Shown here piece by piece: positions 23,750-34,859 of a stretch of 64,000 nt of DNA. The position numbers were made by a program, and so were the translations under genes. The DNA comes from Escherichia phage vB_EcoM_DE16: the sequence record OP595145.1; one strand, written 5' to 3'. The notes under the pieces were generated by a model. The model saw nothing but the letters and a program-made list of their open reading frames with translations, had not been told where the DNA came from and searched no databases. The first letter of the stretch is position 1, and every line of letters begins with the position of its first letter.

Positions 23750-24271
23750 TTAACTCCCCTTTGGTAGATAGAAACCATGCACTTTATCTCGATAAACAAG
23801 ACGCATATCACGTTCCCAGTGTGTCCTTATATTCCGTTTCTTGAAGTATAGAGCACCTTTAGTAACATCTAAAACAGACCGCAATTCAGGAAAATGTTTC
23901 TCTAAATAAAGTAAACGCTCCGCTATTGCTTTTGCTTCCTGCCATTTATCTTTTTCTGTTACGTTAAAAGTTTTCGCATATGAGAATTGCCCTTTCTGGA
24001 ACAAAACTCCTCTGACTGTGTTAGGGAAGTAGGTATCATTTCTTCTGTTGATTACCACATTCCCAACGGCATTCATTCCTTTTTTACCCAGACCGCGACC
24101 TTCTGCGTAAATTGCACAAGCTAATAGAATTTTATCATTATATTGCTTTGTACATTTGTGAACTACTTTAGCGGTTTTTACGTTTGCAGCTTCGGCTTTC
24201 GCCACAACAGGTGTAAATGTAAAAGCAGTTAAGGATAGTAACGCAACTGTTACAAAGTTTTTTATCAGCAA
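23750..24271 (-). CDS. endolysin, SleB/CwlJ-type cell wall hydrolase with N-terminal signal peptide
   Basis: 173 aa; signal-like LLIKNFVTVALLSLTAFTFTPVVAKA; core LACAIYAEGRG...VGNVVINRRNDTYFPNTVRGVLFQKGQFS; TTG start after AAGGAGG. Confidence 0.6.
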   Translation of the reverse strand: MLIKNFVTVALLSLTAFTFTPVVAKAEAANVKTAKVVHKCTKQYNDKILLACAIYAEGRGLGKKGMNAVGNVVINRRNDTYFPNTVRGVLFQKGQFSYAKTFNVTEKDKWQEAKAIAERLLYLEKHFPELRSVLDVTKGALYFKKRNIRTHWERDMRLVYRDKVHGFYLPKGS

Positions 24272-24370: not shown

Positions 24371-24973
24371 TTATGGACATTCATACCATTCTTTTTTACC
24401 ACCGAAGGCCATCACCACATCACAAATATCCAGACCAGCTTTACCTACACCATATGCTTTCAGCTTCCATTCTCCATCTTCACGAACCAAGGAAGCCACG
24501 TGGCAGATTGTGTTGCCAGCTACTTCAGGAGCCAGGAAGTCAAAATCCAGAATTTCCACATTGCGCTCGGAGTCGAAGATTTTAAGCATACCTTCAGAAG
24601 CATGACCAAAACGTTTCAGACCTGTATCATCATCAATGGTCAGAACAAAGGCAATCTCTTGTGCATCAGGAGAGATTTTAGCCAGAGTAATATCAATCTG
24701 CTCCATGCTGCCAGTTCCATCACGAACATCATCACCAGCGAAGGTAGAACGTTCAGGATCAAACTTGTTAGCATAGCAAACCAGATGACGTGCAGACAGC
24801 ATTTCAGGATTGCCAGCGGCATTGTGACGACAAACCAGTGCACTTACATCCAGGTCCAGTTTAGAATCAGATTTCCAAGAGAATTCCAGGCGCAGTTCTT
24901 TCAGAGCCGGAGCAACTTTCTTCAGGGAAATTTTTTCGCTAGAGCCTTTTTTCAGGGAAATTTTATCAGTCAT
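24371..24973 (-). CDS. terD: TerD-family protein
   Basis: 200 aa; N-terminal KISLKKGSSEKISLKK repeat, LDLDVSALV, GDDVRDGTGS, EIAFVLTIDD and GEWKLKAYGVG match the bacterial TerD pattern. Confidence 0.75.
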   Translation of the reverse strand: MTDKISLKKGSSEKISLKKVAPALKELRLEFSWKSDSKLDLDVSALVCRHNAAGNPEMLSARHLVCYANKFDPERSTFAGDDVRDGTGSMEQIDITLAKISPDAQEIAFVLTIDDDTGLKRFGHASEGMLKIFDSERNVEILDFDFLAPEVAGNTICHVASLVREDGEWKLKAYGVGKAGLDICDVVMAFGGKKEWYECP

Positions 24974-24988: not shown

Positions 24989-25258
24989 TTATTTAAGTGT
25001 AATACCAGTTACAGTCAATTCTACTTCCAAAAGCTTAGATGTGTTTTGGATTGATACTAATTGTGCATGATGGTTTAGTTCTACAGCAGAATAATCATTC
25101 TCCCCATCATCTACTTTTAAATAAACAATAACTTCACTAAGGTCTAAACCATTTTCGTCAAATGCAGTTTCATAGACGAAAGTATCTCCTACATCCAAAT
25201 CTTTAATGGTAAGGCATCGTTTATTTACTTTTTGCTCATCAATTTCGAAGTTTAACAC
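24989..25258 (-). CDS. hypothetical protein (paralog A, C-terminus ...LEVELTVTGITLK)
   Basis: 89 aa; GTG start after AGGAGG; directly upstream of terD; paralog of 26280..26558. Confidence 0.4.
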   Translation of the reverse strand: MLNFEIDEQKVNKRCLTIKDLDVGDTFVYETAFDENGLDLSEVIVYLKVDDGENDYSAVELNHHAQLVSIQNTSKLLEVELTVTGITLK

Positions 25259-25487
25259 TTCTTCCTCCTAATGTTATCTCCGGTTTGTATATACGAAGAA
25301 TTATAGCATTTTCATTTTCTTTGTCAACCCATTCTTCATAATCGGGCCATACATGAATCTCTACTCTATTCGCAATATCTTCCATCCGCACAGTCCCAAT
25401 GAAATACTCTTTGAGACTGCGCATAATGAAAGCTTCTCTCTCGCGCCAATAATTTTCTACGACTTGAGAGGCAAGCTCGTCGATCAT
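25239..25487 (-). CDS. hypothetical protein
   Basis: 82 aa; ATGA overlap with upstream stop. Confidence 0.35.
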   Translation of the reverse strand: MIDELASQVVENYWREREAFIMRSLKEYFIGTVRMEDIANRVEIHVWPDYEEWVDKENENAIILRIYKPEITLGGRSVKLRN

Positions 25488-26278
25488 TTTTTAGCACCTA
25501 CTTTAACAACCCACTCTCCGAACTCTTCAGATAAGAGTTTGTCATAAAGCTCTGAATCTGTCAAGTCTAAATCTTTAATGCCAATAAAACCAACATTATC
25601 ATAAGCATTTGCCAGTTCTTTCAGGAAGCCAAACTTCTCATTACCAACGCCAACCATGAACCAATAGATAGGCTTATTCTTATTTTCTTCAATAAGACGA
25701 CGAACAGCACTAGGATCACCATTCTCACCATCTGTCTGGAAGAATACAACACCAGGGGTAACGTCAGCACCTGGTTCAGATACAGCTACAACCTTTTCAC
25801 GCTCTACAGACACTGTTTCAGTTTTACCAAGCAGACGATTAAAGAAGCCTTTCTTTGGAGCCTCCTCTTGTACCACTTGTTTAGTGGTAATATATTTGGT
25901 AACAGTGCCAAAATACTCATCGTAGATATCTGCCATTACAGGGGCGTAATTTGTTCCACCTCCGATACGAACATTACGCATACATTTACCAACATAGTCA
26001 TCGTAAACGTCTGCTGTTGCTGGAGTAAGCTCTTGAGAACTCGTATTGAAGGCCCACATGTCAATTTGTTCATTATCGTCGAACAGCATACCAAAAGGAA
26101 GCAGTTTACCTACAAAATCACTCACTACCCCACGAGCATATAGACTATGCATACTACCAGAAATATCTAGAGCACATGCTACACGAAGAACAATCTTACC
26201 TTCATTCAGGTTCTTATTCTTTTTCAGAGAGAAAGCAAGGTTTTCTTGACGTTTTTTCAGGCTGATTTTCTCGGACAT
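25484..26278 (-). CDS. von Willebrand factor A (vWA) domain protein with TerD-like N-terminal repeat (TerY-like)
   Basis: 264 aa; N-terminal MSEKISLKKRQENLAFSLKK; MIDAS motif ALDISGSM. Confidence 0.65.
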   Translation of the reverse strand: MSEKISLKKRQENLAFSLKKNKNLNEGKIVLRVACALDISGSMHSLYARGVVSDFVGKLLPFGMLFDDNEQIDMWAFNTSSQELTPATADVYDDYVGKCMRNVRIGGGTNYAPVMADIYDEYFGTVTKYITTKQVVQEEAPKKGFFNRLLGKTETVSVEREKVVAVSEPGADVTPGVVFFQTDGENGDPSAVRRLIEENKNKPIYWFMVGVGNEKFGFLKELANAYDNVGFIGIKDLDLTDSELYDKLLSEEFGEWVVKVGAKK

Positions 26279-26279
26279 A

Positions 26280-26558
26280 TTATTTCTCCTTCTTAAGTGT
26301 AATGTTGGTAACTTCTAAATCTACTTCCACCATATTTGTATCTGGTGGGATACAATGAGTATAGCCTCGTTGTGCTAGTGATCCATTAATACAAATCGCA
26401 CTGTTTGTGGAATTTTTAATGAACACCAAGTTACGGTAGGTATCCAACCCTGCGTCTTCATAGGCATCATAATACATGAATGTGGCCCCTATGCCAAGAT
26501 CTTCGAAAGCAATAGGCAAATCCTGACACTTTTCTTCTTGAATATTGAATCTAAACAC
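26280..26558 (-). CDS. hypothetical protein (paralog B, C-terminus ...VEVDLEVTNITLKKEK)
   Basis: Track ORF trimmed to GTG preceded by GAGGAGG; colinear with paralog A; directly upstream of the vWA gene. Confidence 0.35.
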   Translation of the reverse strand: MFRFNIQEEKCQDLPIAFEDLGIGATFMYYDAYEDAGLDTYRNLVFIKNSTNSAICINGSLAQRGYTHCIPPDTNMVEVDLEVTNITLKKEK

Positions 26559-27114
26559 GCATACCTCCTCTACCAATTTTGAAGCCCAAATCGTAAGCTT
26601 CCTTAGTGATCTTTTGTAACTCACTTATAGGAAGTGTTACAAGAGGATCATCTTCTTCAATTTCCATCTTGTCATCTTCTGTTTCAATGAGAGTATTATG
26701 CACTTTGTGATAAGGGTTGTCAACACGTTTAAACTTATTCTTTTCTGTGCTGAAAAAACAATCTGGATCTTCTTCACCATCACCCCAACCTTGGTTAGGA
26801 TCTCCGTCAGATTGTTCTGTAGGGATTTCACCTGTAAAGTACTCTTCCAGCACCATAGCAATACCGTCCCTTGGATTTGAGGAATGCATTAAATCACAAA
26901 CCTTACCCCAATCCATAGCCCATTCGAACCGTTCACGAACGCCATTTTCATCCTCCTTTCCAGAGAAAACACAACCATAACTATCATAGTTGCCATACAT
27001 CTCTTCAATAACAACACCATCCTTCAAAAGAAAGAGATAACAAGGTGATCCGTCGAAAGAAGTAGAAAGGGCAGCTTTGCCAGATTCCTTACACAAAAAA
27101 CTAAAACAACCCAT
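26551..27114 (-). CDS. hypothetical protein
   Basis: 187 aa; acidic, Cys-containing; ATG start. Confidence 0.4.
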   Translation of the reverse strand: MGCFSFLCKESGKAALSTSFDGSPCYLFLLKDGVVIEEMYGNYDSYGCVFSGKEDENGVRERFEWAMDWGKVCDLMHSSNPRDGIAMVLEEYFTGEIPTEQSDGDPNQGWGDGEEDPDCFFSTEKNKFKRVDNPYHKVHNTLIETEDDKMEIEEDDPLVTLPISELQKITKEAYDLGFKIGRGGMRV

Positions 27115-27680: not shown

Positions 27681-28789
27681 TTACCAAGCCCTCGTTTCAC
27701 AGCAGCTACCATCCCGTCTTCCAGAGATTGAACTTCATTAATATAATCAACACGAGCAGCACGGGCTTCCGTATTGATGCGGTTAGTTTCTTCCAACATC
27801 TTAACCAAGTTTTCCTGATCGTGACGCAGAGTTTCAATATCCAACACTTGACGGTTAGCCAGTGCTGCTGCTTCGATCTGATTCTGTGTGGCAAGATCGC
27901 TACCCAGTTTAATTGCCAGGTTAAATTCGTCAAGAACGTTATTCTGCGTCTCTGCTGCTTTCATTTGACGTAAGCTCTCGATATACATGGAGAAGTTAGC
28001 AGAGTAAGCAGGAATAACATTATTTACTATGTTACGCGCAGATCGCATTAAGCTTGCAGAAACTTTTTGCATACCTTGTACACGCGGTCCCATTTGGACA
28101 CACAGTAGGCGCAATGCTTTTAAATCTGCAATACGAATCTCCAGAAGATCCAAAGTATCTCGGATCACTTGTCGCTGTTCTACTGCATCTTCTGGAAGAG
28201 CAGCCAAAGCTTGTTCTTCTTTTTCATAGGTTGCTGTTAGAAGCTGCATATCTCGGTTCAAACTTGCAGCATATTGTCCAATAGCTTGATGTAGCTTTTC
28301 AAGATATACCAAGGAATCTTCTTCTTTGCGAATATCCATTTGAAGGTTCTTTACCAACTCTTCAATACGGTTATTAACATTATCAAACTCCCCAAACAGG
28401 TCTTCTTTCATACCCATAACTTTTTTAATGAGTTTAGTAATACCCTTGCTTTGTTTAATAGAGTTTGGATCAAGTTGTTTTGCCTGTTTAATCAAAGCTG
28501 TGAGTCGTTCACTCATCTGATCACCTTGATTACTACGTTGATGTTTTAATACCTCGGCATTCAAGGAACGCAAGGTTGTTCCTGCCTCTGCCCCGATTTC
28601 TTCGATTTCTTGCCTGGTCATAGAAGGCAAAGCTGGTACTTCTTGCGGTGCGGCTGGTGCATAAACAGGACTGGCATCTAACACGCTTGGAGCGAATACA
28701 GATTTACTGGCATCTGTTGTTGCAGCAAATACGCTCATTTCAGGCTTCTTCTGACCACCAGTAGCTGCTTTTAAAAATGGACTTGTCAT
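27677..28789 (-). CDS. TelA/KlaA-like toxic-anion-resistance family protein (predicted all-helical)
   Basis: 370 aa, helical/coiled-coil composition, size and neighbourhood (TerD, vWA, TerC) fit TelA; no sharp motif. Confidence 0.45.
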   Translation of the reverse strand: MTSPFLKAATGGQKKPEMSVFAATTDASKSVFAPSVLDASPVYAPAAPQEVPALPSMTRQEIEEIGAEAGTTLRSLNAEVLKHQRSNQGDQMSERLTALIKQAKQLDPNSIKQSKGITKLIKKVMGMKEDLFGEFDNVNNRIEELVKNLQMDIRKEEDSLVYLEKLHQAIGQYAASLNRDMQLLTATYEKEEQALAALPEDAVEQRQVIRDTLDLLEIRIADLKALRLLCVQMGPRVQGMQKVSASLMRSARNIVNNVIPAYSANFSMYIESLRQMKAAETQNNVLDEFNLAIKLGSDLATQNQIEAAALANRQVLDIETLRHDQENLVKMLEETNRINTEARAARVDYINEVQSLEDGMVAAVKRGLGK

Positions 28790-29376
28790 TCTTCATTCTC
28801 CTCTTCTGCATCTCTTATATATGGTGAAACACCGTACTCTTTAGCTACTTTAACCCAATCGTCCCATTTATACAACCATAATTTTCCTTCTGTCCCTTCT
28901 TTATCTGATTTCAACCACATATTAGGTTGCTTACCTGGGTACATGCGATTAGGTTTACGATTATAACCTCTAACACATCTTGTCGCAAACCTATCTACCA
29001 GAACAAGAACATATTTATATTCGTGGTTCAACGGCTCTTTGGAAGTGGCTTTAGGATTAGCCCCTAATTCTGCTGCCAGTTTTTGCCAATGAGCACCGTG
29101 CCTACTAAACTTACCCATACAACCATCAATAGCATGAGCAATTTCGTGCTTCATTGTATCTACGATCATATCTCTTGTGGAGTTCTTATGCAAGTGCCAA
29201 TTTACAACAACAATTTTATCTCGGTAGTTGCACCAACCGAAAGAGTTATTCACTTTGTTTCTAACACAAGCTTTATATCCTGCTTCACGTAACATGTTGT
29301 AGTAAACAGGAAAATCTTCTTTTATTTCCTGCATCACTTCCCACCACAAGAGTTGCAAGTCTCTCTCGGTATGCAT
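28786..29376 (-). CDS. SprT-like zinc metalloprotease domain protein
   Basis: 196 aa; HEIAH (HExxH) followed by GKFSRHGAHW. Confidence 0.5.
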   Translation of the reverse strand: MHTERDLQLLWWEVMQEIKEDFPVYYNMLREAGYKACVRNKVNNSFGWCNYRDKIVVVNWHLHKNSTRDMIVDTMKHEIAHAIDGCMGKFSRHGAHWQKLAAELGANPKATSKEPLNHEYKYVLVLVDRFATRCVRGYNRKPNRMYPGKQPNMWLKSDKEGTEGKLWLYKWDDWVKVAKEYGVSPYIRDAEEENEE

Positions 29377-31001: not shown

Positions 31002-31976
31002 TTAAACAGCAGCTTCTTCTTTTTCAGGGAAGATAAAGCTTGCAATAACACCAAGAGCTAATGTGCCTAGAACAATCATCAGACTTACGTTAGGGGAAAT
31101 ATCATGCGGGAGGAATGACCACTTGGCATGAAGTGTTTCACCGAACGGGTGATACATAAGTTTAGCACCAACAAACACCAGAACCACAGCAACAGCTTTC
31201 TCTAAGTGAACCAGATATTTCACAGCTACACTTAACACAAAGAAAAGTGCACGTAAACCAAGAACAGCCATCAGCATTGCAGAATAAACTAGCAGAGGTT
31301 CTTGTGTCACCCCGATCACAGCCGGAACTGAATCAAAAGAGAAGACAATATCTGTAAGCTCAATAACAAACACACAAAGAAGAGCAGGAGTTGCATATTT
31401 AATACCATTCTTAATGGTAATGAACTTTTCACCATCTAGTGCATTGTGCACAGGCAGAACTTTACCTACTAAACGAACAGCCCAATGCTTAGAGTAATCA
31501 ATATCCTCTTCTTCGTCACCACCTTTGATGATAGCCACGGCAGACCAAGCTACAATCAAACCGAACAACACTTGGACCGACCAATGAAGGTTAAACAAAG
31601 CGGTCCCTGCTGCAACAAAAATACCTCGGAAGACAATGGCTCCTGCAATCCCCCAAAGTAAAATCTTATGTTGGAGATGTGTGCTCTTAATTCCAAAGCT
31701 TGCAAAAATTGCCATGAACACCATCAGGTTATCTACAGAAAGACTCTTTTCCAACACATAACCACTTAGGAAAAGCGCGGCAAACTCTTTACCATGTTCT
31801 ACCCAAATGAATGCGTAATATCCTAAAGCTAAAGCAATCCAAAAAACAGACCAAAGCAAAGCAGATTTAATTCCAATTTCTTTATTCTCTTTATGACCAA
31901 AGAAATCGATACCAATAGACAATGCCAAAATACCAACTAAAACAACTACATCAATAATTGGGAAACCGAGTTGCAT
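31002..31976 (-). CDS. terC: TerC-family integral membrane protein
   Basis: 324 aa multi-pass membrane protein; SLSVDNLMVFMAIF and FSFDSVPAVIGVTQEPLLVYSAMLMAVLGLRALFF match TerC signatures. Confidence 0.75.
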   Translation of the reverse strand: MQLGFPIIDVVVLVGILALSIGIDFFGHKENKEIGIKSALLWSVFWIALALGYYAFIWVEHGKEFAALFLSGYVLEKSLSVDNLMVFMAIFASFGIKSTHLQHKILLWGIAGAIVFRGIFVAAGTALFNLHWSVQVLFGLIVAWSAVAIIKGGDEEEDIDYSKHWAVRLVGKVLPVHNALDGEKFITIKNGIKYATPALLCVFVIELTDIVFSFDSVPAVIGVTQEPLLVYSAMLMAVLGLRALFFVLSVAVKYLVHLEKAVAVVLVFVGAKLMYHPFGETLHAKWSFLPHDISPNVSLMIVLGTLALGVIASFIFPEKEEAAV

Positions 31977-32289: not shown

Positions 32290-32763
32290 TTAAAGTTTAT
32301 AAATAGTCACATCGTGACCTGTTTTTACTAAAGTTTCTTCAATCATCACTTGGATGATAGCCCAATTACCTCCGGCATGTCCCGCTCCAATCATAGGTAA
32401 ACCGATCTTACATTTTTGGTCACGGAGAAGCAAATCATTAGCCATAGCTATTAGTGCATCGTATAGGGCATCATAGTCCAACTGACGACCTTTAGCATTA
32501 TATCCGTAACGGTATTGCCCGTATAGATTATATACCAAAGGGTCTGATTGTTCGTCTGGCACCCCTAAACTAAAAGAACCTAACTTACTTTGATCACCAG
32601 CCATTGTGTCTAAATCTGCCGCATATGCATAAGGGAATGCTCGTTTAATTTGCGGAGCAATTCCTGCCCCCATATTACACATACAATTGCAACAATGAGC
32701 AATAACAGTTACTTCACCTGCTTTAGCGGCATCAATAAGATTACCTGTTTTCATTTTAAGCAT
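32290..32763 (-). CDS. macro-domain-like protein (ADP-ribose binding/processing fold)
   Basis: 157 aa; VIAHCCNCMCNMGAGIAPQI and IGLPMIGAGHAGGNW resemble the macro-domain N-x6-GGG and G-x-G-x-G loops. Confidence 0.5.
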   Translation of the reverse strand: MLKMKTGNLIDAAKAGEVTVIAHCCNCMCNMGAGIAPQIKRAFPYAYAADLDTMAGDQSKLGSFSLGVPDEQSDPLVYNLYGQYRYGYNAKGRQLDYDALYDALIAMANDLLLRDQKCKIGLPMIGAGHAGGNWAIIQVMIEETLVKTGHDVTIYKL

Positions 32764-32775
32764 TTTAGCTCCTTA

Positions 32776-33603
32776 TTACAGAATGTGTTGTTTTGTGTAA
32801 CGATCCAAGAATTCAAAGTTTTCAGCATACTTTGAAATTCGGTTGTAACCTTCTCCCAAACATCCGAAGAAAAGTTGCTCTACATAGTAGTGTGGCAATT
32901 GGCTAAGAATGATTTTGAAGTCTTCGTGATTTTGGCCCATAAGATACTTAATAGGACGAACAAGACACTGTGCATCACGTTCTTCATTAATCATTTTAAC
33001 AAACGCTTCTGGTGTATTAATATAATTAAAATTCAGTTTAGCTTCGGTATCTGCTTGATTACCTTCATATTTTGCAAAATACAAGAAGTAAACATCATTT
33101 TTAACTTGATTTTCATCAAGGATCTCAATCAGTTTGTCTTCATGAGTTCCAGTGATATTTACATCATCAATAAACACAAGCTTCTTATCACCCCAGAATT
33201 CTTTGTTGCAGTAGAATGTATCCCCATCGATAAGTTTCTTACGACTAGCTTTATCCAAGAAACCATAATCGTTGATATAGCTAACTTTACGATGAATAAT
33301 ATCCAGTTCTGCTGAACGACCTTGATCATATTGTGATTGCAACATATTAAAGTAATTAATAAAATGATCTGTCATCATTGTTGCAGCATTATGCACATGG
33401 TTGTAAGGAGAAGGAATGATAACAAATTGTTCCCCAATATGTTTCATTGCCACTTGAGCAAAAAACTGAAGTGCCAATTCTTTACCCATACGACGCGCAG
33501 CCTGGTTACTACCAAATTTCAATTTTGAATAATCTTGGATATCAAAAGTAGCAGTTTCCAGGTCATCAAATTTATTTGCAAAAATTTGAGTTTGATTACG
33601 CAT
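32776..33603 (-). CDS. type I phosphoribosyltransferase-like protein
   Basis: 275 aa; PRPP-loop-like KLVFIDDVNITGTH. Confidence 0.5.
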   Translation of the reverse strand: MRNQTQIFANKFDDLETATFDIQDYSKLKFGSNQAARRMGKELALQFFAQVAMKHIGEQFVIIPSPYNHVHNAATMMTDHFINYFNMLQSQYDQGRSAELDIIHRKVSYINDYGFLDKASRKKLIDGDTFYCNKEFWGDKKLVFIDDVNITGTHEDKLIEILDENQVKNDVYFLYFAKYEGNQADTEAKLNFNYINTPEAFVKMINEERDAQCLVRPIKYLMGQNHEDFKIILSQLPHYYVEQLFFGCLGEGYNRISKYAENFEFLDRYTKQHIL

Positions 33604-34252
33604 TTACAATTTCTCCTCTTTTAAGTTTCTCTAGTAAGTCGTTAGGGTTCTTAATATGACAGAAGTTAATCCCTATGTCAACACATTTACCATCAAATTC
33701 TTCGCTGTCCCCAACATGTAAAATCTCTTCAGCCTTCAAAGGAATGCTTGAATATGTGGCGGTCCTAACAAAGAATCTAGGATCTGGTTTACACAACAGA
33801 TGTTCGTCTGAAAAATGCATAAATTCAAAACAATTCCAACTGTCGAACATACAAGCACGACGCAAAATATCCCCAGATATAAAATTAGTATTGCTTTTAA
33901 TACTAAGATCATATTTACCAGACAAGTATAGCAAACAAACTGGCAAATCTAAAGCAATATGTGGAGGAAATTTAAGAAACCATTGCTCACACTCAAAACG
34001 CATTTGTGCAGATTCTACAGGGGTTAAACCTATCTTTCTTCCCAACATATTCCATGCATATGCTACACCTTCTGCACACCCATTTAGTGCAGCATTATCC
34101 ATAATTTCTTTGGCATCTTTATATGCTTCTTTTGCCGCACGTTCAGACATTCTACCATATGTAGCAATAGTGTGCGTACGTGCATCTGCATAGTTTTGAT
34201 TGGCAGAAATAAGAGTATTCCATACATCAAAAGAGATATGTTTTATTGTCAT
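33596..34252 (-). CDS. HAD-superfamily hydrolase (phosphatase)-like protein
   Basis: Track ORF trimmed to ATG after GGTGGG; motif I-like FDVWNTL, conserved Lys (CKPDPRFF), motif IV-like HVGDSEEFD. Confidence 0.5.
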   Translation of the reverse strand: MTIKHISFDVWNTLISANQNYADARTHTIATYGRMSERAAKEAYKDAKEIMDNAALNGCAEGVAYAWNMLGRKIGLTPVESAQMRFECEQWFLKFPPHIALDLPVCLLYLSGKYDLSIKSNTNFISGDILRRACMFDSWNCFEFMHFSDEHLLCKPDPRFFVRTATYSSIPLKAEEILHVGDSEEFDGKCVDIGINFCHIKNPNDLLEKLKRGEIVNA

Positions 34253-34253
34253 A

Positions 34254-34859
34254 CTAGGCCCACCATGCATCAAGATTTAAGTTACTGTCTACCACAACTT
34301 GTTCTATGTGGTAGCCTTTTATCTGTATGCCACTGTTCAAGAGCATATCATATGCTTCATTGAAACGCAACTTATCTTCTGCGGAATATAAGCGAGCATT
34401 ATAAAATCGGTAATCAATTTCTTCAGCATTAGAAGAAATACGGAAGAAGTTTGTTTCTACTTCGGGATCACTTGCTGAAGTCTTAATGTGAACTTCTCCA
34501 TAATTTTCTTTACTTAGATCCATGAAAAGAACACAGGCAACATGTTTAAACATTCGTTCCAGTTTGTAACGAACAACATTGAAACCTGCATTCTCAAGTT
34601 TTTCTACACACTGCAACATTAAAGTAGTGTCGAGATCGCTTTGATACTTTGTTAACATACGATCACGTTGAGACTTTGTATCCCGATGTAAATCAATTGT
34701 TGTGCATTTTGCACCAATAATCTTAGCTGCTTTCATCAACTCTTCAGAACTAACGTTAGATAAAGTAAGATGAAAATGGGCTTTCCACACTTTTTTAGCA
34801 GGGACACCAAAAGATTTATCCCCACTATTCGGCATGTTGACTACTACACTATGTTGCAT
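34254..34859 (-). CDS. hypothetical protein (one H-x-T-x motif, weak 2H-phosphoesterase-like hint)
   Basis: 201 aa; HFHLTL motif; second motif not clear. Confidence 0.35.
   Translation of the reverse strand: MQHSVVVNMPNSGDKSFGVPAKKVWKAHFHLTLSNVSSEELMKAAKIIGAKCTTIDLHRDTKSQRDRMLTKYQSDLDTTLMLQCVEKLENAGFNVVRYKLERMFKHVACVLFMDLSKENYGEVHIKTSASDPEVETNFFRISSNAEEIDYRFYNARLYSAEDKLRFNEAYDMLLNSGIQIKGYHIEQVVVDSNLNLDAWWA

Follow-up and report, generated by a model that had tools for sequence, protein, structure and literature searches.

A stretch of 64,000 nucleotides from Escherichia phage vB_EcoM_DE16 (OP595145.1), called the window here in its full length, carries two small genes of one family, each placed directly upstream of a gene of a tellurite-resistance-like (Ter) system. 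Such systems occur widely, in bacteria and plasmids as well as in phages, and they have long been associated with resistance against tellurite, colicins and phages. Phage-encoded Ter systems were reportedly described by Anantharaman, Iyer & Aravind in 2012 (Mol Biosyst 8:3142). The phages from which the window comes form the genus Phapecoctavirus of the subfamily Stephanstirmvirinae, and the region from 23.7 to 29.4 kb is 98–98.6% identical to that of about 64 phAPEC8-like coliphages. Every gene from 20 to 38 kb lies on the minus strand. The two small genes, their immediate neighbors and the open reading frames (ORFs) interleaved with them are, in order of transcription:

26551–27114, minus strand, acidic ORF of 187 residues, phrog_14928
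26280–26558, minus strand, small protein B (gene smallB), 92 residues, phrog_11278, the paralogue before the vWA gene
25484–26278, minus strand, stand-alone vWA-TerF-like protein, 264 residues, PF10138 at E = 8e-38
25239–25487, minus strand, ORF of 82 residues, phrog_22387
24989–25258, minus strand, small protein A (gene smallA), 89 residues, phrog_11278, the paralogue before the TerD gene
24371–24973, minus strand, TerD-domain protein, 200 residues, PF02342 at E = 3e-28

The two small proteins are colinear paralogues, as an earlier, sequence-only reading of this DNA had proposed. BLASTP aligns them over 89 residues without a gap, with 28/89 identities (31%) and E = 3e-13, and both match the hidden Markov model (HMM) of phrog_11278 over their full length (A, residues 1–89, E = 4.2e-44; B, residues 1–92, E = 5.2e-49). 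Both ORFs are annotated as coding sequences in related phages, and both begin with GTG (positions 26558 and 25258) preceded by ribosome-binding sites of the GGAGG type. The ratio of nonsynonymous to synonymous substitution rates (dN/dS) for smallB is about 0.19 against its orthologues in phage phi92 and in the related locus L010 (loci and proteins from our comparisons carry L and P numbers), indicating purifying selection. For smallA, whose orthologues P0015, P0021 and P0047 are 46–51% identical to it, a proportion of nonsynonymous differences (pN) of 0.37 against a saturated synonymous proportion (pS) of 0.78 likewise indicates purifying selection. Every homologue of the family starts M-[FL]-x-F, and all members are acidic, with isoelectric points (pI) of 4.3–5.3 (4.3 for A and 4.5 for B). 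Invariant or nearly invariant positions are M1, F4, G24, T26, F27, G37-L38-(D39), K48, A54 and L81.

The genes are tightly packed. Each small gene ends a few nucleotides before the next gene, again as had been stated from the sequence alone: between the smallA stop and the TerD ATG there is a spacer of 15 nt that contains GAGGAG, and between the smallB stop and the vWA ATG there is 1 nt. At their other ends, smallB overlaps the 187-residue ORF by 8 nt and smallA overlaps the 82-residue ORF by 20 nt; the latter ORF also shares 4 nt with the end of the vWA gene. The two junctions had also been said to share DNA. The 11-mer TTAAGTGTAAT is indeed present at both places, but it is coding rather than junction sequence: on the coding strand it reads ATTACACTTAA and supplies the last I-T-L-K codons of both small proteins. 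A role for the 11-mer as a regulatory junction element was rejected, given that it consists of these codons and that orthologues end instead in ITLR, ITLT, IKLK or ISVK.

Upstream of each small gene lies a promoter-like motif:

25300–25327, minus strand, sigma70-type consensus TTGACA-16-TATAAT with TGn (extended −10), 12/12 consensus positions, in the 3′ end of the 82-residue ORF and upstream of smallA–TerD
26695–26723, minus strand, promoter-like TTGACA-17-CATAAT, 11/12 consensus positions, in the 187-residue ORF, 165 nt upstream of smallB

Both are predicted promoters by their match to the consensus. L010 and L012 have the first at the corresponding position, and phi92 and L010 have the hexamers of the second at an identical offset. 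Similar motifs stand ahead of the small gene of L004 and of L005, and the spacer between the vWA and TerD genes of phi92 holds TTGACT-16-TAAAAT, before TerD.

An AlphaFold2 model of small protein B computed from an alignment of 18 diverse sequences has a predicted local distance difference test score (pLDDT) of 84.2 and a predicted template modeling score (pTM) of 0.71; an earlier run on 8 close sequences, at a pLDDT of 54, was discarded. The model has five to six β-strands and a single helix, and its confidence is low at the N terminus. The predicted fold of the family is a small β-barrel with one helix, only weakly SH3-like (the SH3-like barrels named for comparison are the C-domain of ribosomal L2, FeoA, the C-terminal domain of DtxR/IdeR, HspQ, KOW and Tudor), and A and B are predicted to share it. 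Foldseek comparison of the model with the PDB returned nothing significant. In a BFVD structure search, the top viral match was the phAPEC8 orthologue of smallA, after which came generic small phage proteins. The small proteins gave no usable match in Pfam, in PADLOC or among PDB sequences, a DUF5006 match at E = 0.049 being disregarded.

Two distant relationships of the small family were considered and rejected. Homology with TerD received a probability of 0.1% when the two family alignments were compared with hhalign. The small-family profile also draws summed weak matches on giant repeat proteins (2,000–5,700 residues; P0013–P0044), and four checked proteins of about 500–1,000 residues among those matches are rich in DUF11, DUF7507 and DUF7619 repeats. 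A relationship to the DUF11/CARDB-like repeat (PF01345) was set aside as a motif-level artefact, as an ankyrin protein is among the matches and the neighbors of the predicted fold differ. The DUF11-type matches are sums of short stretches over a G-[DE]-T-[FV]-x-Y...G motif, and probably represent convergent β-strand motifs. For short β-rich queries, DUF11-type repeat matches give misleading E-values.

The two genes that follow the small genes are not of the same kind. The one after smallA is a bona fide TerD, with a PF02342 match at E = 3.2e-28 over profile positions 3–177 of 187; its N terminus is KISLKKGSSEKISLKK, and it is 81% identical to gp172 of phi92. The one after smallB matches the vWA-TerF-like family PF10138 at 131 bits, against a gathering cut-off of 29.4, and this product (25484–26278) has no PF02342 match at E ≤ 0.1. 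The TerD-type start ascribed to both products is correct as to the motif, both beginning M-x-x-KISLKK, and incorrect as to the domain, the second being a vWA-TerF-like protein without TerD. Residues 4–257 of the vWA protein align by tblastn to the C-terminal, vWA half of Escherichia coli TerF, and from residue 4–5 onward the protein also aligns to a stand-alone vWA of Caballeronia. The residues of its metal ion-dependent adhesion site (MIDAS), DxSxS...T...D, are found as D37-I-S-G-S41, the GGT of GGTNYAPV and the D of FFQTDGEN, and they are kept in the alignment; judged by these residues, the metal site is intact.

What the two downstream proteins share lies at their N termini. BLASTP of the vWA protein against the window TerD gives a match confined to about 55 N-terminal residues (2–53; 57 columns, E = 0.001), and the repeats themselves occupy 24914–24973 in TerD and 26207–26278 in the vWA gene, both on the minus strand. 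An hSLxK...hSLxK N terminus is found in 9/9 phage vWA proteins examined, with or without a small gene in front, and the motif also opens the vWA proteins of the unrelated phages KP13-16, CcrColossus, Bacillus WH1 and phiPsa374. The stand-alone vWA of a Caballeronia plasmid begins ITLEKR..VSIVLEK, and TerF of E. coli IncHI2 has ARISLEKK...SVSLTK in the linker preceding its vWA domain. These comparisons identify the hSLxK...hSLxK N terminus as a general feature of the vWA-TerF-like family and not as the trace of a local duplication. For the serine of KISLKK, TerD uses the codon TCC and the vWA gene AGC; the 5′ ends of the two genes are thus not recent DNA copies of one another, and the difference also speaks against gene conversion.

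One variant of the motif does go with the small gene. In loci that have the small gene, TerD and vWA carry [IVL]SLKK at the N terminus (the exception being the first vWA motif of 05F01, ISLQK), whereas Ter loci lacking it have SL[E/D/S/T/A]K at the same motif (loci L002–L020 compared). The N-terminal 20–24 residues bear a net charge of +3.5 in TerD and +4.5 in vWA, and both proteins are otherwise acidic. Isoleucine and valine change in step in TerD and vWA, with KISLKK in Stephanstirmvirinae and KVSLKK in the metagenomic group.

Across related loci, the small gene varies in number and in place. Besides that of the window, the layouts are:

phi92 (Justusliebigvirus): 187-residue ORF, small gene, vWA, TerD
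Klebsiella phage 05F01: small gene, vWA, TerD
metagenomic contigs L004–L008 and L013: vWA, small gene, TerD
L014, a short contig: small gene, TerD
L009–L011 and IMG/VR L021: the window layout, with two small copies and an 80-residue ORF
L012: small gene, small gene, vWA, 80-residue ORF, small gene, TerD (three copies)

In phi92 and 05F01, the single small gene stands before vWA and TerD follows vWA directly. The small proteins of L004–L008 are 21–35% identical to those of the window, and the vWA protein of L004, the only one of these five loci compared in this respect, is 51% identical to the window vWA. In every locus read, the small gene adjoins vWA, TerD or both. In the Ter block of L012 (7001–8855), a 56-kb Logan contig (SRR12532581), the tandem pair P0012 and P0005 lies before vWA and the third copy before TerD.

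The family is narrowly distributed. By tblastn against the phage database it occurs in 125–126 records, with two copies in 64 to 69 depending on the query paralogue, and a vWA-TerF-like gene is found in 212 records, 80 of them below 60% identity. A profile search run exhaustively over 1.84 billion representative proteins recovered about 14 single-domain clusters of 87–93 residues, and IMG/VR scans with sub-alignments added one further locus only; the family was found in phage-type loci only. With the family HMM, six Ter loci (those of KP13-16, CcrColossus, Bacillus WH1 and phiPsa374, four of these more distant phages, and two plasmid loci, the Caballeronia one and the IncHI2 ter operon) gave nothing better than E = 2. 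The module is also present in records labeled Campylobacter phage B15, C3 and A145, Acinetobacter phage vB_AbaM_ABPW7, Pseudomonas phage PsgM04F and Serratia phage KKP_3264. Between B15 and the window the identity is 98.3% across 5.7 kb, and the small proteins of ABPW7 are about 96% identical to those of the window; the host labels of some such records (Campylobacter, Acinetobacter, Pseudomonas, Serratia) look doubtful.

The layouts indicate that the small gene was duplicated alone, and more than once, because its number and place vary around an invariant vWA–TerD pair. A neighbor-joining (NJ) tree groups the small copies by position, with a clade of copies before vWA, a clade of copies before TerD that goes with the 80/82-residue ORF, and the forms lying between vWA and TerD. 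The more distant phages have the order vWA, small gene, TerD. The position before TerD is probably ancestral, and the second copy would have arisen before vWA in the Stephanstirmvirinae lineage. Phapecoctaviruses would have retained both copies, phi92-like and 05F01-like phages probably lost the copy before TerD and kept only that before vWA, and one contig carries an additional copy in tandem. The 82-residue ORF, which has a dN/dS of 0.29 against its L010 orthologue, occurs only in phages that also have the copy before TerD.

We favor, with moderate confidence, the view that the small family serves the phage vWA/TerD core as a lineage-specific accessory or adaptor, was duplicated alone and would bind vWA and/or TerD. 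The close linkage of the small genes to TerD and vWA makes a functional partnership a sensible hypothesis, and a physical partnership of the small proteins with vWA or TerD is plausible. Support comes from the paralogy, the purifying selection, the small size of the family, the adjacency in every locus read, the grouping of copies by position, the tight packing, the promoter-like motifs upstream, the acidity of the family beside basic SLKK-bearing N termini, and the intact MIDAS motif. To this extent the tie to TerD-type genes proposed from the sequence alone stands. The stronger term used there, an obligate partner of TerD-type proteins, does not hold in general, as the TerD of phi92-like phages has no small gene in front, the six other Ter loci yielded nothing with the HMM, and the small gene is present in 125–126 phage records as against 212 with a vWA-TerF-like gene. 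It must be narrowed to a clade-specific accessory and candidate partner.

As a mechanism, the acidic barrel would bind vWA and/or TerD and help to assemble or tune a sub-membrane complex of TelA, vWA and TerD. Contact could be made in two ways. The more plausible would use the basic N-terminal [IV]SLKK...SLKK segment, which is common to TerD and vWA in exactly the clade that has the small gene. Alternatively, the invariant G-L-D loop could offer an acidic ligand to the metal at the MIDAS of vWA; vWA ligands typically supply an acidic residue to this site. TelA and TerF-type vWA proteins have been proposed to form sub-membrane structures, and a role in superinfection exclusion or in an envelope stress response has been proposed for phage Ter systems (PMC7824862). 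The phage would deploy such a complex during infection, for superinfection exclusion or envelope protection as proposed for Ter systems.

Several points weigh against this interpretation. All carriers of the small gene may form one clade, in which case the conserved adjacency is confounded by common descent, and the correlation of SLKK with the small gene is confounded by phylogeny in the same manner. Other Ter loci that we read function without the small protein. Finally, the order of duplication and loss is something that we infer from an NJ tree of about 90 columns that carries no support values.

The most serious rival holds that the small genes are passengers, for example host-takeover or anti-defence genes, which sit in the Ter block by shared ancestry and have no tie to vWA or TerD. 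We consider this possible, if rather doubtful. The narrow distribution speaks for it, as do the possibility that all carriers belong to one clade, the lack of a family annotation and of any PADLOC or PDB sequence match, and the abundance in phage genomes of small ORFs of this kind, generic small phage proteins being also the structural neighbors returned from BFVD. However, new copies have repeatedly landed or stayed beside vWA or TerD, in three positions, in phages whose small proteins are only 23–35% identical; the small genes are tightly packed with the gene downstream (1 and 15 nt); and promoter-like motifs are kept upstream of each pair of small and downstream gene.

The accessory reading can also be given a more specific form, to which we assign a low probability and which we offer tentatively. 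Here the small barrels would be adaptors for the basic [IV]SLKK...SLKK segments of TerD and vWA, with one paralogue per client; by capping or bridging the segments, they would set the time and place at which a Ca2+/metal-sensing complex of TerD, vWA and TelA is assembled under the membrane. That the small β-barrels are instead RNA-binding regulators of the Sm/KOW/L2-like type, controlling the vWA and TerD messages through their translation or their stability, is very improbable and is disfavored by their strongly acidic composition. Least credible of all is the sequence-only reading's own model, in which an ancestral unit of small gene and TerD was duplicated as a pair and a vWA domain was afterwards added to one TerD, or took its place, with the small protein as an obligate TerD partner or chaperone: although both downstream products start with KISLKK, both small genes end in ...ITLK just upstream and TerD and vWA show a weak N-terminal similarity, the model is contradicted on several independent counts by the comparisons above, in that the vWA protein lacks a TerD domain and PF10138 accounts for its 264 residues, an ISLxK...SLxK start is found in bacterial and phage vWA-TerF-like proteins that have no small gene, the serine codons TCC and AGC come from different codon families, the small gene is present in one, two or three copies while the vWA–TerD pair stays single, the TerD gene of phi92 is not preceded by a small gene, and the small family is absent by HMM from the bacterial Ter loci read.

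The small genes lie within a larger cluster, whose remaining members are, in order of transcription:

33596–34273, minus strand, HAD-like hydrolase, a weak match (E = 0.0014) below the Pfam cut-off
32776–33603, minus strand, PRTase_3 (ComF-like) protein
32290–32763, minus strand, Macro domain protein, E = 8e-5, just above the Pfam cut-off, between PRTase_3 and TerC
31002–31976, minus strand, TerC-family membrane protein, PF03741 at E = 3e-40
28786–29376, minus strand, SprT-like metallopeptidase, PF10263 at E = 4e-9, adjoining TelA, in the same order in L009–L012
27677–28789, minus strand, TelA-like protein, PF05816 at E = 3e-33
23750–24271, minus strand, SleB-type cell-wall hydrolase, PF07486 at E = 2e-17, downstream of TerD

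Transcription thus runs from the HAD-like gene through PRTase_3, Macro, TerC, SprT-like, TelA, the 187-residue ORF, smallB, vWA, the 82-residue ORF, smallA and TerD to SleB. Several unassigned ORFs lie between TerC and the SprT-like gene, and three tiny ORFs between TelA and the 187-residue ORF. The SleB-type hydrolase forms a conserved boundary of the block, being found at the same place in those relatives whose contigs reach that far (L002–L012). TerC, TelA, TerD, a TerF-type vWA and PRTase/HAD genes are co-located, in the same order as in L009–L012, with the HAD match below its cut-off. By this gene content, the cluster is a nearly complete phage-borne Ter system.

The region encoding the Macro, PRTase_3 and HAD-like proteins (32290–34273) is annotated in SF1-1 as phosphatase, PRTase and hydrolase. 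These are putative Ter-associated metabolite genes, and they fit the proposed branch of Ter systems concerned with a nucleoside-like metabolite, possibly one with an ADP-ribose-type moiety. The 187-residue protein has a pI of 4.4 and a cysteine-rich N terminus, MGCFSFLCKESG..., and received no family assignment apart from phrog_14928. In phi92 (76% identity) and in L009–L012, its ORF likewise directly precedes the small gene that stands before vWA, and the protein may be a further clade-specific member of the Ter module. No model of PADLOC-DB, which covers anti-phage defence, matched the small proteins, vWA, TerD, TelA or TerC at E ≤ 0.01.

Overall, the locus is a lineage-specific variant of a known Ter system and not a new kind of system. 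Phage Ter systems have been discussed by Iyer et al. in 2021 and proposed to act in phage–phage competition (PMC7824862). Like the systems of that account, the window combines TerC, TelA, a stand-alone TerF-type vWA, TerD, a PRTase and a weakly HAD-like protein in a virulent tailed phage; unlike them, it has an acidic protein of 90 residues, no small β-barrel component being named in the passages of the account that we consulted. The interleaving of one to three small copies with vWA and TerD is confined to Stephanstirmvirinae-like phages and a small number of metagenomic relatives. With the bacterial and plasmid terZABCDEF operon (IncHI2) and the operons of TelA, vWA, TerC-like and TerD genes, the window shares homologous vWA-TerF-like and TerD proteins and the same hSLxK...SLxK motif. 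It differs from them in that bacterial TerF is a fusion of TerD and vWA, whereas the window vWA stands alone, in that the HMM search found no homologue of the small protein in bacterial or plasmid Ter loci, and in that the motifs there are SL[E/S/T]K as against SLKK in the window. Both window proteins are full-length members of phrog_11278, a family with no recorded function, and its link to vWA and TerD and its variation in copy number are described here.

The immediate importance of these observations is modest, as they concern accessory ORFs of an uncharacterized family in phages that have been well sampled. The correction that they bring matters nonetheless, in that the repeated KISLKK is a motif common to TerD and TerF-type vWA proteins rather than the trace of a local duplication. 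Should the adaptor form of the reading be true, the conserved N-terminal hSLxK motif would be an interaction handle throughout the TerD and TerF-vWA superfamily, and the first defined protein–protein contact in a Ter system would be in hand. A clade-specific protein that travels with the vWA–TerD core at a natural copy number of 0, 1, 2 or 3 would offer a genetic and biochemical handle on the assembly or regulation of vWA and TerD.

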